Numbered from the stretch's first letter, positions 5,467-60,814 are shown. The stretch is 64,000 nucleotides of DNA from an uncultured Gemmatimonadales bacterium (GCA_963817715.1 CAWFPG010000019.1:41484-105483), one strand, 5' to 3'. Notes: a model not told the origin generated them from the letters alone. Translations and numbers: made by a program.

Positions 5467-6957
5467 ATGGCGAAGAACTTCAAGAACTTCATCGGCGGCC
5501 AGTGGGTCGCTCCCTCCACCGGTCGCTATTTCGAGAACCGCAACCCGGCCGACACCGGCGACCTGATCGGGCGCTTCCCGGATTCGGGCAAGGCCGACGT
5601 GACCGCCGCGGTCCGCTCGGCGAAGGCCGGCTTCGAGCAGTGGTCGCGGACCCCGGCCCCGCTGCGGGGCGACGTGCTGCGCCGCGTCGGCGACCTCATG
5701 ACCGCCCGGAAGGACGAGATCGCCGACCTGATGACCCGCGAGATGGGCAAGGTGGTGGCGGAGACCGCCGGCGACGTGCAGGAGGGCATCGACACGGCCT
5801 ACTACGCCGCCACCGAGGGACGGCGGCTGTTCGGGCACACGGTCCCGAGTGAGCTGCGGCAGAAGTTCGCGATGAGCGTGCGCCGCCCGATCGGGCCCGC
5901 GGGGCTGATCATGCCGTTCAACTTCCCGCTGGCGATCCCGACCTGGAAGGCGTTCCCGGCACTGCTCTGCGGCAACAGCATCATCATCAAGCCGTCGGAG
6001 GACGTCCCCCACACCGCGACGGTGCTGGTGGAGATCCTGCTCGAGGCGGGGCTGCCGCCCGAGGTGGTGCAGCTGGTGCATGGCGGCGGTGAGGTCGGCG
6101 CGGCGCTGGTCGCCCACAAGGACGTGCCCCTGATCTCGTTCACCGGGTCGACCGACACCGGTGCCAAGATCGGCGAGGTCTGCGGCCGGATGCACAAGCG
6201 GCTCTCGCTCGAGATGGGCGGCAAGAACGCCCAGATCGTGATGGACGATGCCGATCTCGACCTGGCGCTCGACGGCGTGCTCTGGGGCGCCTTCGGGACC
6301 ACCGGGCAGCGCTGCACGGCGACGTCGCGGCTGATCGTCCACCGCAAGGTCCACGACAAGCTGGTGAGCCGGCTGGTCGACGCCGCCGGCAAGCTGGTGC
6401 TGGGCGATGGCCGCCAGCCGCGGACCCAGGTCGGTCCGCTGATCCACGAGGCGGCCCGCGAGAAGGTCGAGCGCTACGTGGCGATCGGCCAGGAGCAGGG
6501 GGCCGAGCTGGTGCTGGGTGGCAGCCGTCCGCGCGGCCAGCGGACCCGCAACGGCTGGTTCTACCGGCCCACGGTCTTCACCAACGTCAAGCGCGGCTCA
6601 CGGCTCGCCACCGAGGAGATCTTCGGTCCGGTCCTGAGCGTGATCCGGGTGAACAGCTATGCCGACGCGGTGAAGGTCAACAACGAGGTCAAGTACGGCC
6701 TGTCGTCGGCGATCTACACCCGCGATGTCAACCGGGCGTTCCGCGCCATGGAGGACCTCCAGAACGGCATCACCTACGTCAATGCGCCGACCATCGGCGC
6801 GGAGGCGCACCTGCCGTTCGGCGGCGTGAAGCAGACCGGCAACGGGCACCGCGAAGGTGGCTGGGAAGTGTTCGAGTTCTACTCGGAGACCAAGGTCAAC
6901 TACGTCGACTTCTCCGGCACACTGCAGCGGGCACAGATCGACACGTACGACGTCTGA
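5467..6957 (+). CDS. NAD(P)-dependent aldehyde dehydrogenase
   Basis: PFNFP, IIKPSE, FTGST, LEMGGKN, GQRCTA (catalytic Cys), EEIFGPV, PFGGVKQTG. Confidence 0.95.
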   Translation: MAKNFKNFIGGQWVAPSTGRYFENRNPADTGDLIGRFPDSGKADVTAAVRSAKAGFEQWSRTPAPLRGDVLRRVGDLMTARKDEIADLMTREMGKVVAETAGDVQEGIDTAYYAATEGRRLFGHTVPSELRQKFAMSVRRPIGPAGLIMPFNFPLAIPTWKAFPALLCGNSIIIKPSEDVPHTATVLVEILLEAGLPPEVVQLVHGGGEVGAALVAHKDVPLISFTGSTDTGAKIGEVCGRMHKRLSLEMGGKNAQIVMDDADLDLALDGVLWGAFGTTGQRCTATSRLIVHRKVHDKLVSRLVDAAGKLVLGDGRQPRTQVGPLIHEAAREKVERYVAIGQEQGAELVLGGSRPRGQRTRNGWFYRPTVFTNVKRGSRLATEEIFGPVLSVIRVNSYADAVKVNNEVKYGLSSAIYTRDVNRAFRAMEDLQNGITYVNAPTIGAEAHLPFGGVKQTGNGHREGGWEVFEFYSETKVNYVDFSGTLQRAQIDTYDV

Positions 6958-7052
6958 GGACGGAGAGCAGAGAACGGAGAACGGAGAGCAGAGCACTCCA
7001 AGTGGCTCAGCGACCAATTCTCGCGTTCTCCGTTCTCCGCTCTCCGTTCTCC
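6956..7052. repeat. Inverted pair of heptamer tandem arrays (GAGAACG family)
   Basis: 6 units GAGGACG/GAGAGCA/GAGAACG at 6956-6997, a 20-nt spacer, then 5 complementary units (GTTCTCC) at 7018-7052. Confidence 0.9.
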
Positions 7053-7156
7053 GGTTCCTCCCCCCTTGCCCCCATCCGATCGCCCCGGGTATTCTCCGGC
7101 ACCTACCCACGACAGCTGTATTGCTCGGTAATGTCCACGCACGAAGAGGTTGTGCG

Positions 7157-8029
7157 ATGCGACCACTGCAGGTCCGCGGCGGCAGCCGCGGTGGCACCGG
7201 GGCAGACGAAGGTTCGCTCGACGTCTATCTCCGGGACATCAGTCGGTATCCGCTGATCACCAAGGCGGATGAAGTGGCCCTCGCGAAGCGGATTCGCAAG
7301 GGCGATCAGGAAGCCCTCGATACCCTCGTTCGCAGCAACCTCCGCTTCGTCGTCTCCGTCGCCAAGAAATACCAGAACCAGGGCGTGTCGCTCGCCGACC
7401 TGATCAACGAGGGCAACCTCGGGCTGATTCGTGCCGCCCACAAGTTCGACGAGTCGAAGGGGATCAAGTTCATCTCCTACGCGGTCTGGTGGATCCGCCA
7501 GGCGATCCTCCAGGCCCTGGCCGAGCAGTCGCGCATCGTGCGGGTACCGCTCAATCGGGCCGGCACGCTGCACCGGATCGGCCGGCGGACCTCGGCGTTG
7601 CAGCAGGAGCTGGGGCGCGACCCCACGGCCGGGGAGATCGCCGAGGGGATGGACCTCGACGTGGCCGAGGTGGAGCGGACGATGGCGATCTCGCAGAGCC
7701 ATCTCTCGCTCGACGCGCCGGTGACCCAGGGCGAGGACAACCGGCTGCTCGACTATCTCCCCGACCAGCACGGCCGTGGTCCCGACGCCGAGGCGATCGA
7801 CCATGCCCTCAGCGAGAGCATCGACAGTTGCTTCAAGTCGCTGCGGGAGCGCGAGGCACGGATCCTCCGGCTCTACTTCGGCCTCGACTCGCCCCAGCCG
7901 AAGACGCTCGAGGAGATCGGCGCCATGCTCGGGATCACCCGGGAACGGGTTCGCCAGATCAAGGAGAAGGCGCTGCAGCGACTCCGCCACCAGGGCGAGG
8001 CACGCGCACTGGAATCGTTCCTGAGTTGA
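7157..8029 (+). CDS. RpoD/SigA-family sigma-70 factor lacking region 1.1
   Basis: SLDVYLRDI, LVRSNLRFVVSVAKKY, DLINEGNLGL, KFISYAVWWIRQ, TLEEIG...TRERVRQI. Candidate -10 TATTCT at 7089-7094. Confidence 0.92.
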   Translation: MRPLQVRGGSRGGTGADEGSLDVYLRDISRYPLITKADEVALAKRIRKGDQEALDTLVRSNLRFVVSVAKKYQNQGVSLADLINEGNLGLIRAAHKFDESKGIKFISYAVWWIRQAILQALAEQSRIVRVPLNRAGTLHRIGRRTSALQQELGRDPTAGEIAEGMDLDVAEVERTMAISQSHLSLDAPVTQGEDNRLLDYLPDQHGRGPDAEAIDHALSESIDSCFKSLREREARILRLYFGLDSPQPKTLEEIGAMLGITRERVRQIKEKALQRLRHQGEARALESFLS

Positions 8030-8038
8030 GCCAGCAGG

Positions 8039-8153
8039 GAGAACGGAGAACGGAGAACGGAGAACGGAGAACGGAGCACGGAGCACGGAGCACGGGTCAT
8101 GGGGTCCTTTCCTGGCGGAGCCCCCCCATTCCCCATTGACGATTCACCATTCA
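8039..8153. repeat. Heptamer arrays with arms from two different families
   Basis: 5x GAGAACG + 3x GAGCACG (8039-8094), a spacer, then 4x CCATTCA-like units (8126-8153). Confidence 0.9.
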
Positions 8154-8189
8154 CCGGCCGACCCTATTGCCCGGGCCGGGCCGTTCCGA

Positions 8190-59941: not shown

Positions 59942-59949
59942 CGAGGCGT

Positions 59950-60357
59950 TCAGCGATCGACGGCAGGGGACTCGGTCAACTCGATCAGGATCCCGTCGGT
60001 CGCCTTGGGATGGACGAAGGCGATCCGGCAGCCGCCCGCCCCGGTACGGGGTTGATCGTCGATGAGGGTGTAGCCTCCGGCCCGGCAGCGCGCCAACGCG
60101 GCGTCGAGGTCCGGCACCCGGTAGCAGACGTGGTGGATTCCCGGTCCGCGCCGTGCCAGGAACCTGGCAATCGGGGAGTCGGGCTCGGCGGGTTCGAGGA
60201 GTTCCACCTCGGAGCCGCCGAAATCGAGGTGAACGATCGTGGCGCCGTCGGCGGTCTCCGGACCGCGTACCGGCACACCCAGCACGTCGCGGTAGAACCG
60301 GAGCGCCGACTCGACGCTCTCGACCGCGACACCGATGTGAGCAATGGTCGGCTTCAT
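59950..60357 (-). CDS. mce: Methylmalonyl-CoA epimerase (VOC family)
   Basis: IAHIGVAV, VELLEP, IARFLARRGPGIHHVCY, FVHPK..GILIEL. Confidence 0.88.
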   Translation of the reverse strand: MKPTIAHIGVAVESVESALRFYRDVLGVPVRGPETADGATIVHLDFGGSEVELLEPAEPDSPIARFLARRGPGIHHVCYRVPDLDAALARCRAGGYTLIDDQPRTGAGGCRIAFVHPKATDGILIELTESPAVDR

Positions 60358-60399
60358 GGCCGGAATATCTAACCTGGTGGCACGAGGAGTGAAGAGACG

Positions 60400-60732
60400 A
60401 TGAGCGGACAAACGGTCGCGGTGACCGATGCGACATGGGCCAGCGAGATCGAGCAGGCCAAGGGGCTGGTGCTGGTGGACTTCTGGGCTGCCTGGTGCGG
60501 ACCGTGCCGAATCATCGCCCCCACCCTCGACGCCCTGGCGAGTGAGTACGCCGGCAAGGCCAAGATCGCCAAGCTCGACGTGGACGCGAACCAGCAGAGC
60601 GCCATGAAGTTCAACGTCCGCTCGATTCCGGCAGTGCTCTTCTTCAAGGACGGCAAGCACGTCGATTCCCTGATCGGCGCCTACCCACGCGCCGCGTTCG
60701 AGCAGAAGATCCAGCAGCATCTGGCGGCCTAG
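60400..60732 (+). CDS. trxA: Thioredoxin
   Basis: DFWAAWCGPC, FNVRSIP; SD GAGGAG. Confidence 0.96.
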   Translation: MSGQTVAVTDATWASEIEQAKGLVLVDFWAAWCGPCRIIAPTLDALASEYAGKAKIAKLDVDANQQSAMKFNVRSIPAVLFFKDGKHVDSLIGAYPRAAFEQKIQQHLAA

Positions 60733-60739
60733 GCCCCCT

Positions 60740-60814
60740 GAGAGCGGAGAGCGGAGAGCGGAGAACAGGGGCCACCCCGTTCACCGTGCTCTGTTCTCCG
60801 TTCTCCGTCCTCGG
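60740..60814. repeat. Inverted heptamer arrays (GAGAGCG/GAGAACG family)
   Basis: 3x GAGAGCG + GAGAACA, GGGG-cca-CCCC core, then TGCTCTG TTCTCCG TTCTCCG TCCTCGG. Confidence 0.88.

Follow-up and report, generated by a model that had tools for sequence, protein, structure and literature searches.

The window analysed here is a stretch of 64,000 nt from the 3.6-Mb assembly (69% G+C, 21 contigs) of an uncultured Gemmatimonadales bacterium, corresponding to C19:41484-105483. Between its hppA and ychF genes lies a cassette in which a small gene of the PF05635/TIGR02436 four-helix-bundle family is enclosed by two inverted arrays of tandem heptamers, one purine-rich and the other pyrimidine-rich. Arrays of the same kind occur elsewhere in the window next to the ends of other genes. 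Nine period-7 loci had been named in the original prediction, and all nine were recovered with Tandem Repeats Finder, which served as the array caller; the sequences of the loci were also checked by direct reading. The loci and the genes that adjoin them are listed in Table 1.

Table 1. Heptamer arrays of the window and the genes that adjoin them. Positions are counted from the first nucleotide of the window; energies and z-scores refer to predicted RNA folds.
Feature	Position	Strand	Repeat units and parts	Context and fold
Aldehyde dehydrogenase gene	5467-6957			TGA stop at the start of the 6956 element
Hairpin element	6956-7053		purine-rich arm GAGAACG ×4.6 (6956-6987), loop 30 nt, pyrimidine-rich arm TTCTCCG ×5 (7018-7053)	starts on the TGA of the aldehyde dehydrogenase gene; -64.8 kcal/mol, z -7.0
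Sigma-70 gene	7157-8029			downstream of the 6956 element
Mixed pair	8038-8155		GGAGAAC ×8.3 (8038-8095), then CCATTCA ×4.3 (8126-8155)	GGAGAAC array 9 nt past the sigma-70 gene stop; arms from two separate families, no pairing; fold of 8032-8160 z +1.5, not better than shuffles
SpoIID-domain gene	8717-9943			
Solo array	9947-10050		CGATGGT ×11 (9947-10024 by Tandem Repeats Finder) plus degenerate tail	3 nt past the stop of the SpoIID-domain gene; no pyrimidine-rich partner
Gene	17128-18723			TAG stop touched by the GCGACAG arm
Hairpin element	18723-18812		GCGACAG ×3.6 (18723-18747), then inner GC-rich hairpin GGCCGGCTCAACGCATTGAACCGGCC, TGTCGCC ×4 (18785-18812)	fills exactly the gap between two convergent genes; -75.7 kcal/mol, z -10.4
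LolA-like gene	18813-19463	minus		stop touched by the TGTCGCC arm
Solo array	33030-33059		GGTGATG ×4.3	in the gap separating two minus-strand genes
Gene-bearing cassette	48684-49203		GGTCGAT ×5.1 (48684-48719), CCATCGA ×5.3 (49167-49203)	fills the hppA-ychF gap
PF05635/TIGR02436 four-helix-bundle gene	48776-49156	plus	126 aa	antisense to its neighbours hppA and ychF
AATGGTG-family hairpin	54004-54065		GGTAAAT ×4.3 (54004-54033), CCATTCA ×2.1 (54051-54065)	minus-strand fold -32.5 kcal/mol, z -8.0
tRNA-Gln (anticodon TTG)	54791-54861	minus		directly adjoins the degenerate array
Degenerate GAGAACG-like array	~54893-54930		GAGAACG GAGCGAC GGAACGAC GGAGCAC	scored as period 8 by Tandem Repeats Finder; also adjoined by an AATCTAG motif
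Hairpin element	60740-60812		GAGAGCG ×3.6 (60740-60764), loop 12 nt, CCGTTCT ×5.1 (60777-60812)	-54.4 kcal/mol, z -6.2
Gene	60421-60732			stop precedes the 60740 element
Gene	60829-61662			start follows the 60740 element

The cassette upstream of ychF consists, in order, of the purine-rich arm, a leader containing GGAATCTAG, the four-helix-bundle open reading frame (ORF), a small hairpin and the pyrimidine-rich arm. The protein was matched by Pfam PF05635, '23S rRNA intervening sequence protein' (E = 1.6e-34), by TIGR02436, 'four helix bundle protein' (E = 2e-32), and by PDB entry 2GSC, which is XCC0516 of Xanthomonas campestris (E = 1.4e-23). Six PF05635 genes were located in the genome when its ORFs in all six frames were searched with a profile, and every one of the six lies between a purine-rich and a pyrimidine-rich array, with spacers of 420-447 nt and with different units at each cassette. 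A seventh pair of cassette size (C5:318131-318666) consists of AACGGAG arrays with 10 and 8 units, separated by 409 nt. Its ORFs, e.g., one of 113 aa with a third-position G+C content (GC3) of 0.74, match neither PF05635 nor any other Pfam family, and the pair is a cassette that either has decayed or carries another cargo.

Other members of the order show the same arrangement. PF05635 was present in 28 of 31 genomes, at 1-8 copies each, and about 26 of the 30 loci that were fetched had flanking arrays. Scanning GTDB species genomes with a 6-sequence alignment gave 80 loci from Acidobacteriota, Planctomycetota, Chloroflexota, several proteobacterial classes, a cyanobacterium, a spirochaete, Elusimicrobia, a bacterium of the candidate phyla radiation and archaeal metagenome-assembled genomes (MAGs); arrays at a distance of up to 300 nt were found on both sides of the gene at 51 of these, on one side at 26 and on neither side at 3. 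When pooled, 150 loci included 93 with arrays on both sides and 40 with arrays on one side. The arms were reverse complements within 1 mismatch at 77 of the 93 two-sided loci, the purine-rich array came first at 78 loci compared to 8 with the opposite order, and the period was 7 in 194 arrays and 8 in 27. Array density beside the PF05635 gene was 2.59/kb, or 12 times the 0.21/kb found elsewhere in the same loci. PF05635, first recognised in intervening sequences of rRNA, is the one gene regularly enclosed by such elements, both in this genome and in many other phyla.

Orthologues of XCC0516 in Xanthomonas provide a further example. They are located between accB and accC, with the units GGGAATC, GGGAGTG, GAGAATC and GGGAATC following straight after the accB stop, and CATTCCC, CATTCTC, GACTCCC and TATTCCC running from the end of the ORF up to the accC ATG. 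This cassette (L197/L201, 1424-1873) is wedged into the accB-accC operon on the same strand, and its pyrimidine-rich arm stops at the accC start codon. The co-occurrence of heptamer arrays and four-helix-bundle genes that the original prediction had proposed to test was seen, in that PF05635 genes are bracketed by arrays both here and across phyla, but it is not strict, as two congeners described below (G010 and G014) demonstrate.

The leader of the four-helix-bundle cassette contains the motif AATCTAG, which is kept in relatives as part of the leader sequence given above. Within the window this motif is found at ~33008-33014, ahead of the 33030 array, and at ~48742-48748 and ~54879-54885. There are 33 copies in the genome, of which 30 are intergenic and 8 are within 120 nt of an array, and the motif may be a promoter-like element.

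Arrays were counted across the genome at three or more copies, and were positioned relative to genes predicted by a crude codon-usage ORF caller (2970 genes, 80% coding), for which stops are reliable and starts less so. Period 7 was represented by 632 arrays, whereas periods 6, 8 and 9 had 176, 41 and 99, respectively. While arrays of period 6, 9 and 12 were mostly intragenic, 514 of the 632 period-7 arrays (~81%) were intergenic. The enrichment of period 7 over other periods, which had been put forward as a test of the original prediction, was therefore confirmed, and it is accompanied by a bias toward non-coding DNA. When written on the purine-rich strand in their smallest rotation, the main units are ATGGTCG and ACAGGCG (74 arrays each), AACGGAG (68), AATGGTG (61), ACGAGAT (56), ACGGAGG and ACGATAG (41 each) and AAGGGTG (37), and these are accompanied by a tail of units that differ by one mismatch. 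About eight discrete families, each spread over dozens of loci in a strict geometry, bear out the earlier claim that the arrays belong to one system and are not the outcome of random slippage. The R-R-Y-R-G-N-N core that the units had been said to share is weak: 118 distinct units, each optimally rotated, gave 2.85 bits against 2.62 +/- 0.07 for the same units with shuffled letters. The real signal in the units is their composition, the 5′ arm being 40% G and 16% C.

After removal of overlaps, 626 arrays remained and these formed 396 clusters. Neighbouring arrays followed the order purine-rich then pyrimidine-rich in 188 cases and the reverse in 20, nearly all of the latter being more than 200 nt apart and only ~3 of them close. 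The spacers of pairs in the common order are mostly 0-120 nt, with a separate group at 409-447 nt. This order is unchanged whether the flanking genes are oriented ++, --, +- or -+. Polarity belongs to the inverted pair, is identical on both strands and is not set by transcription, so that the purine-rich arm comes after the stop codon whichever way the gene points. Purine-rich arrays of the top strand adjoin the left gene (median 12 nt) and the complementary arrays adjoin the right gene (median 11 nt); the proximal gene is thus at a median of 11-12 nt and the distal one at 86-91 nt. There are 245 arrays within 15 nt of a stop codon and 56 within 15 nt of a predicted start, and in the mRNA order at the 245 stop-adjacent arrays the stop codon is followed by the purine-rich arm. 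A common orientation had been predicted; it is indeed non-random genome-wide, with the purine-rich arm after stops, but it is not defined relative to the direction of transcription. Stop codons carried in the purine-rich strand were considered as the cause of the polarity, and were rejected when inspection of the units revealed a stop triplet in only three of the eight families.

Where both arms of a pair come from the same family, the predicted stems are of very high stability (-54 to -76 kcal/mol, z -6 to -10). Judged by their position and folding, those directly after stops are most likely 3′-end or stability structures. The most frequent copy number is 4 units, giving an arm of ~30 nt, and the copy numbers of the two arms within a pair are almost independent (r = 0.13). 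The 250 solo arrays include ~64 that have a degenerate partner on the expected side. A self-complementary array, GAATCGATGATCGATCATCGATGATCGATCATCGATTC, occurs at the junction of the aldehyde dehydrogenase and sigma genes in G010 and G014 (L113 of G010, 1364-1397); its unit, ATCGATG, is near its own reverse complement, and so both arms read alike. DNA metagenome contigs break at the arrays, and they gave one 8-nt indel.

The sites of the arrays were followed among related genomes. At the aldehyde dehydrogenase/sigma junction, congeners have hairpins of other units straight after the stop (in one of them the array overlaps the stop), or nothing, and the closest relative (G015) has no array at either the sigma or the ychF site. 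For 11 of 20 GGTCGTA hairpins of G010, the syntenic gap is well defined in the present genome, and nine of these 11 gaps are occupied, by arrays of ACAGGCG, AACGGAG, ACGAGGT, AACAGCG or ATGGTCG. The base rate of occupation among all gaps is ~13%, giving a binomial probability of ~6e-7. Sites persist or are re-used while the unit is swapped from the resident repertoire, and the nested and mixed arrays may be intermediates of unit replacement. Persistence of this kind fits homing into existing hairpin sites, and fits poorly with simple decay or in-situ drift. Inspection of filled and empty sites, by eye only, revealed no target-site duplications.

A connection between the gene-less arrays and the cassettes is seen in their units. 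Among relatives, 31 of 45 gene-less arrays match, with at most 1 mismatch, a unit that flanks PF05635 in their own genome, whereas 1000 trials with shuffled genomes averaged 4.1 matches and never exceeded 15. For the sigma and ychF loci alone, which were not chosen for the gene, a hand tally gave 23 of 31. Matches to three tandem copies of TAGGGGC numbered 132 in G020 and 252 in a Planctomycetaceae MAG, the two genomes (of different phyla) with a TAGGGGC-armed PF05635 gene, compared to 0 matches in six other genomes; the reversed pattern gave ~0. In Brucella pseudintermedia, the octamer TAAGGGAG that flanks its PF05635 gene occurs at at least 6 loci, and nowhere else. In a tree built from 68 Gemmatimonadales proteins, the units of close relatives are related to each other, and a single clade carries arms of octamers; the period is therefore inherited with the element, rather than being fixed by the polymerase. 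The single period that had been proposed does not hold throughout: some lineages have octamer arms, and these track the one clade. G022, without a PF05635 match, showed no heptamer family in a 232-kb sample, while its congener G020 has them.

The cassette upstream of ychF keeps its position in two families of the order, with arms that differ between genomes. At this site in G010, GGTCGTA arms enclose only 190 nt, in which the 5′ leader and 3′ hairpin of the cassette are kept and the ORF is gone, making this a clear instance in which internal deletion turned a cassette into a gene-less hairpin. Three tandem copies of GGTCGTA were matched 230 times in G006, 349 times in G013, 197 times in G010 and 126 times in G014, with none in six other congeners that include the present genome. 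Given the arrays in G010 and G014, families are gained and lost between species and can persist in the absence of a cognate gene; these two genomes contradict the idea that a family strictly depends on its gene. A model of miniature inverted-repeat transposable elements was also considered. Comparison of 154 short elements with each other and with the interiors of cassettes gave only a few similar pairs among the 154 loops and no conserved shared interior, and copy-and-paste of whole elements is therefore rejected.

The absence of arrays from coding regions, as originally stated, is correct for the window, but elsewhere in the genome kinase genes carry hairpins in frame. There are 28 paralogous genes for Hanks-type Ser/Thr kinases outside the window, on C11 (~45-125 kb), C5, C6, C12, C13 and C20. 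An in-frame, translated heptamer hairpin of 16-28 codons is present in 17 of them, built from GGTCGAT, GAGAACG, CTCACGA and other units, and the remaining 11 are 'empty'. All of the hairpins occupy the same codon position, which lies in the turn between beta4 and beta5 and is preceded by DSG and followed by L(L/F)Y(Y/F)VMP. Filled and empty states are intermingled in the kinase-domain tree, with at least 13 changes, indicating recurrent gain, loss or gene conversion at one site.

On balance, we consider it somewhat probable that the arrays and the PF05635 cassettes make up one element system, organised like REP/RAYT (repetitive extragenic palindromes and their associated tyrosine transposases) or NTS/Ssn. 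The genome contains ~400 foldback-type elements, each a purine-rich tandem array, a variable loop and a complementary pyrimidine-rich array, set tightly against gene ends. The full-length element carries the PF05635/TIGR02436 gene in its loop, and most copies are gene-less. The four-helix-bundle protein would recognise its own repeat and help to insert, replace or maintain the hairpins. That the protein is a sequence-specific reader driving insertion or replacement is a tentative part of this proposal, to which we give distinctly less credence than to the system as such. To our knowledge, structures have been solved within PF05635, a very large family whose members are small, but no role is known outside Avd of the diversity-generating retroelements (DGRs). 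A solved homologue is reportedly a pentamer, going by the title of the structure paper. The original prediction had called for a sequence-generating or protein-recognition mechanism: random slippage is indeed disfavoured, and the four-helix-bundle protein is a candidate for such a mechanism. No reverse transcriptase or RNase III is detectable, and most units lack G-quadruplex potential.

Several observations weigh against a single gene-linked system. About one third of the pairs have arms from two families and cannot form a stem. The loops of gene-less copies are mostly unrelated to one another and to the cassettes, and neither a movement event nor a target-site duplication was seen. G010, which has lost the ORF, and G014 are without a PF05635 gene flanked by GGTCGTA, and in the present genome no significant relation of 'one gene per family' was found (chance P = 0.33). 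The 150 pooled loci were picked by similarity to Gemmatimonadales proteins and leniently scored, and the result for G022 comes from one fragmented assembly. We know of no catalytic activity, established or predicted, for PF05635. The arms of cassettes could also be overwritten like all other sites, which would explain why they match the genome repertoire; since the arms of the ychF cassette vary with the repertoire of each genome, the 31 of 45 matches may partly reflect turnover at all sites.

The arrays might instead be passive microsatellites, produced by 7-nt replication slippage, with hairpin-templated repair keeping the arms complementary and PF05635 riding in the loops as a selfish passenger, as it does in rRNA helices. 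A slippage preference for 7 nt is an idea that Rehm et al. 2015 (PMC4692102) credit to a 2007 survey. Near-independent arm copy numbers, unrelated loops, families that outlive their cognate gene, the lack of significance for 'one gene per family' and a vertically inherited ychF cassette with arms changing as at any site are all as expected for such repeats. Slippage alone, however, does not account for ~8 discrete units at 37-74 loci each, nor does it sit well with whole families that are present in some congeners and have 0 matches in others, with octamer families beside heptamer ones and a period that tracks a protein clade, with replacement of the unit at conserved sites, or with the near-absence of heptamer families from G022, which lacks the gene. 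We regard this explanation as unlikely, though it deserves to be taken seriously. Lower still do we place the possibility that the elements are host signals under selection, working as terminators, stabilising the 3′ ends of mRNA or binding a global regulator in the way suggested for Geobacter metallireducens (PMC2700814), with the unit itself unimportant. Their position straight after stops, the very stable stems, the occupation of 9 of 11 sites in two species, the GC-rich terminator-like hairpins in several loops and the Geobacter interpretation point in this direction, yet the closest relative has no array at the sigma and ychF sites, mixed pairs do not fold, the 250 solo arrays are left over, some elements are in frame inside kinase genes, and a pure host signal leaves the association with PF05635 across phyla unexplained. 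A host-signal role is compatible with the one-system interpretation as a secondary, domesticated function.

Two further explanations are borrowed from described repeats. In a classical intervening sequence (IVS), stems would be cut by RNase III and the insert thereby removed from host transcripts, and in a DGR, an Avd-type protein would work with a reverse transcriptase. The 23S IVS of Coxiella has the same design, with RNase III cutting within the heptamer stem, and the protein has a weak similarity to Avd. In this lineage both are very improbable. The RNase III domains PF14622 and PF00636 were found in 0 of 21 Gemmatimonadales genomes, while eight bacterial controls were positive, and E. coli Rnc and the signature motif had no match in the present genome. 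With no RNase III gene detectable in the order, the stems here are probably not RNase III substrates, but cleavage by this enzyme may still apply in Xanthomonas or Coxiella. An IVS in the 23S rRNA, for which helix 25 or helix 45 is the classical location, is likewise rejected, the rRNA being uninterrupted: 2950 nt match positions 1-2925 of the model in one piece, here and in 9 relatives, with no insert. The DGR alternative was rejected on the absence of RVT_1 here and from 29 of the 31 genomes searched, and on a match to the Avd model of 16.9 bits against a cut-off of 80. Least credible of all is the G-quadruplex proposed for the Xanthomonas and Nostoc repeats (PMC4692102), in which four units would supply four G-tracts. 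Four units is the commonest copy number here too, and the 5′ arms are rich in G, but GGG is missing from five of the eight main families, octamer arms likewise have 4 units most often, and ACGAGAT and ACGATAG, with 56 and 41 arrays, lack even GG and yet show the same geometry and four-unit mode. The quadruplex was rejected on this lack of G-tracts.

Literature searches returned no paper linking dispersed heptamer arrays to PF05635 in general, and in the literature found PF05635 appears solely as an IVS protein, as a relative of Avd and as a gene in cas loci. The link between the two is new relative to the literature searched, and ties heptamer repeats, known since 1990, to PF05635 within genomes and across phyla. 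The 23S rRNA IVS would then be recast as one habitat of a far more widespread element. We advance only tentatively, and with some doubt, the broader idea that PF05635/TIGR02436 proteins are sequence-specific readers of tandem heptamer or octamer arrays, perhaps with one repeat unit bound by each subunit of the pentamer, and together with the arrays form a domain-wide, hitherto unrecognised hairpin-element system. In this view incoming elements would target hairpins already present at the ends of genes, and this would account for sites that persist while their units change; if true, one system would unify the cyanobacterial heptamer repeats, the Xanthomonas repeats, the paired sites of Geobacter and the ORF-bearing rRNA IVS. 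For annotation, it is of practical use that the hairpins mark gene ends, break short-read assemblies and can lie in frame inside genes. The absence of RNase III, if real, would mean an order without a nearly universal dsRNA endonuclease.

Heptamer repeats of the short tandemly repeated repetitive (STRR) type were reportedly described in cyanobacteria by Mazel and colleagues in 1990. Rehm et al. 2015 (PMC4692102) found GGGAATC to be highly enriched across Xanthomonas genomes and described GGGGAYT repeats in Nostoc, proposing a G-quadruplex for both and naming no gene. The G-rich strand in that study adjoins the 5′-neighbouring ORF in any orientation, and many arrays are less than 50 bp from a stop. 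The period of 7, the intergenic bias, the four-unit mode and the inverted pairs are all shared with the Gemmatimonadales arrays, as is the variation of length and sequence at the same junctions among close relatives. The present genome differs in having ~8 families, most of them incapable of forming G-quadruplexes, and the flanking of XCC0516 orthologues by the GGGAATC repeat was found here, the gene being absent from the published account.

The 23S IVS of Coxiella burnetii (Warrier et al. 2016, PMC4990558) contains a PF05635-family ORF inside an inverted-repeat stem of ~28 bp that includes 2-3 tandem copies of GACAGAT, their number varying by strain, and it is there that RNase III cuts; the same paper also cites a Leptospira IVS. 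A PF05635 gene within a heptamer stem is also the arrangement at 48684-49203. The elements described here, however, occur between protein-coding genes, or sometimes within them, instead of in rRNA; their arms recur in hundreds of copies that have no gene, and their host order is without detectable RNase III. In Geobacter metallireducens, Aklujkar et al. 2009 (PMC2700814) reported several multicopy classes of 3-5 tandem heptanucleotides and interpreted these as sites of global regulators. They resemble the present arrays in being mostly opposite-strand pairs at variable distance, between and sometimes inside genes, but no gene family was linked to them. Foldback (FB) transposons of Drosophila have long inverted arms of short tandem repeats, with a middle that is variable or absent and sometimes contains genes. 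These are eukaryotic and much larger, and the likeness is one of analogy, with homology not implied.

The closest parallels in organisation are REP/REPIN sequences with their RAYT (Di Nocera et al. 2013, PMC3733652) and the NTS repeats that accompany the nuclease Ssn (Chenal et al. 2025, PMC11893778). The arms of the present elements are tandem heptamers and not a fixed palindrome, and the flanked gene is PF05635/TIGR02436 instead of the HUH Y1 (IS200/IS605-like) transposase that characterises REP/RAYT. Unlike the HUH transposase of RAYT or the GIY-YIG nuclease Ssn, its product, a four-helix bundle, has a length of ~120 aa and lacks any known catalytic motif. What all three have in common are abundant, palindromic intergenic repeats that are mostly downstream of genes and often form inverted dimers, several families of them per genome, and a low-copy gene that is itself flanked by the dispersed repeat family.

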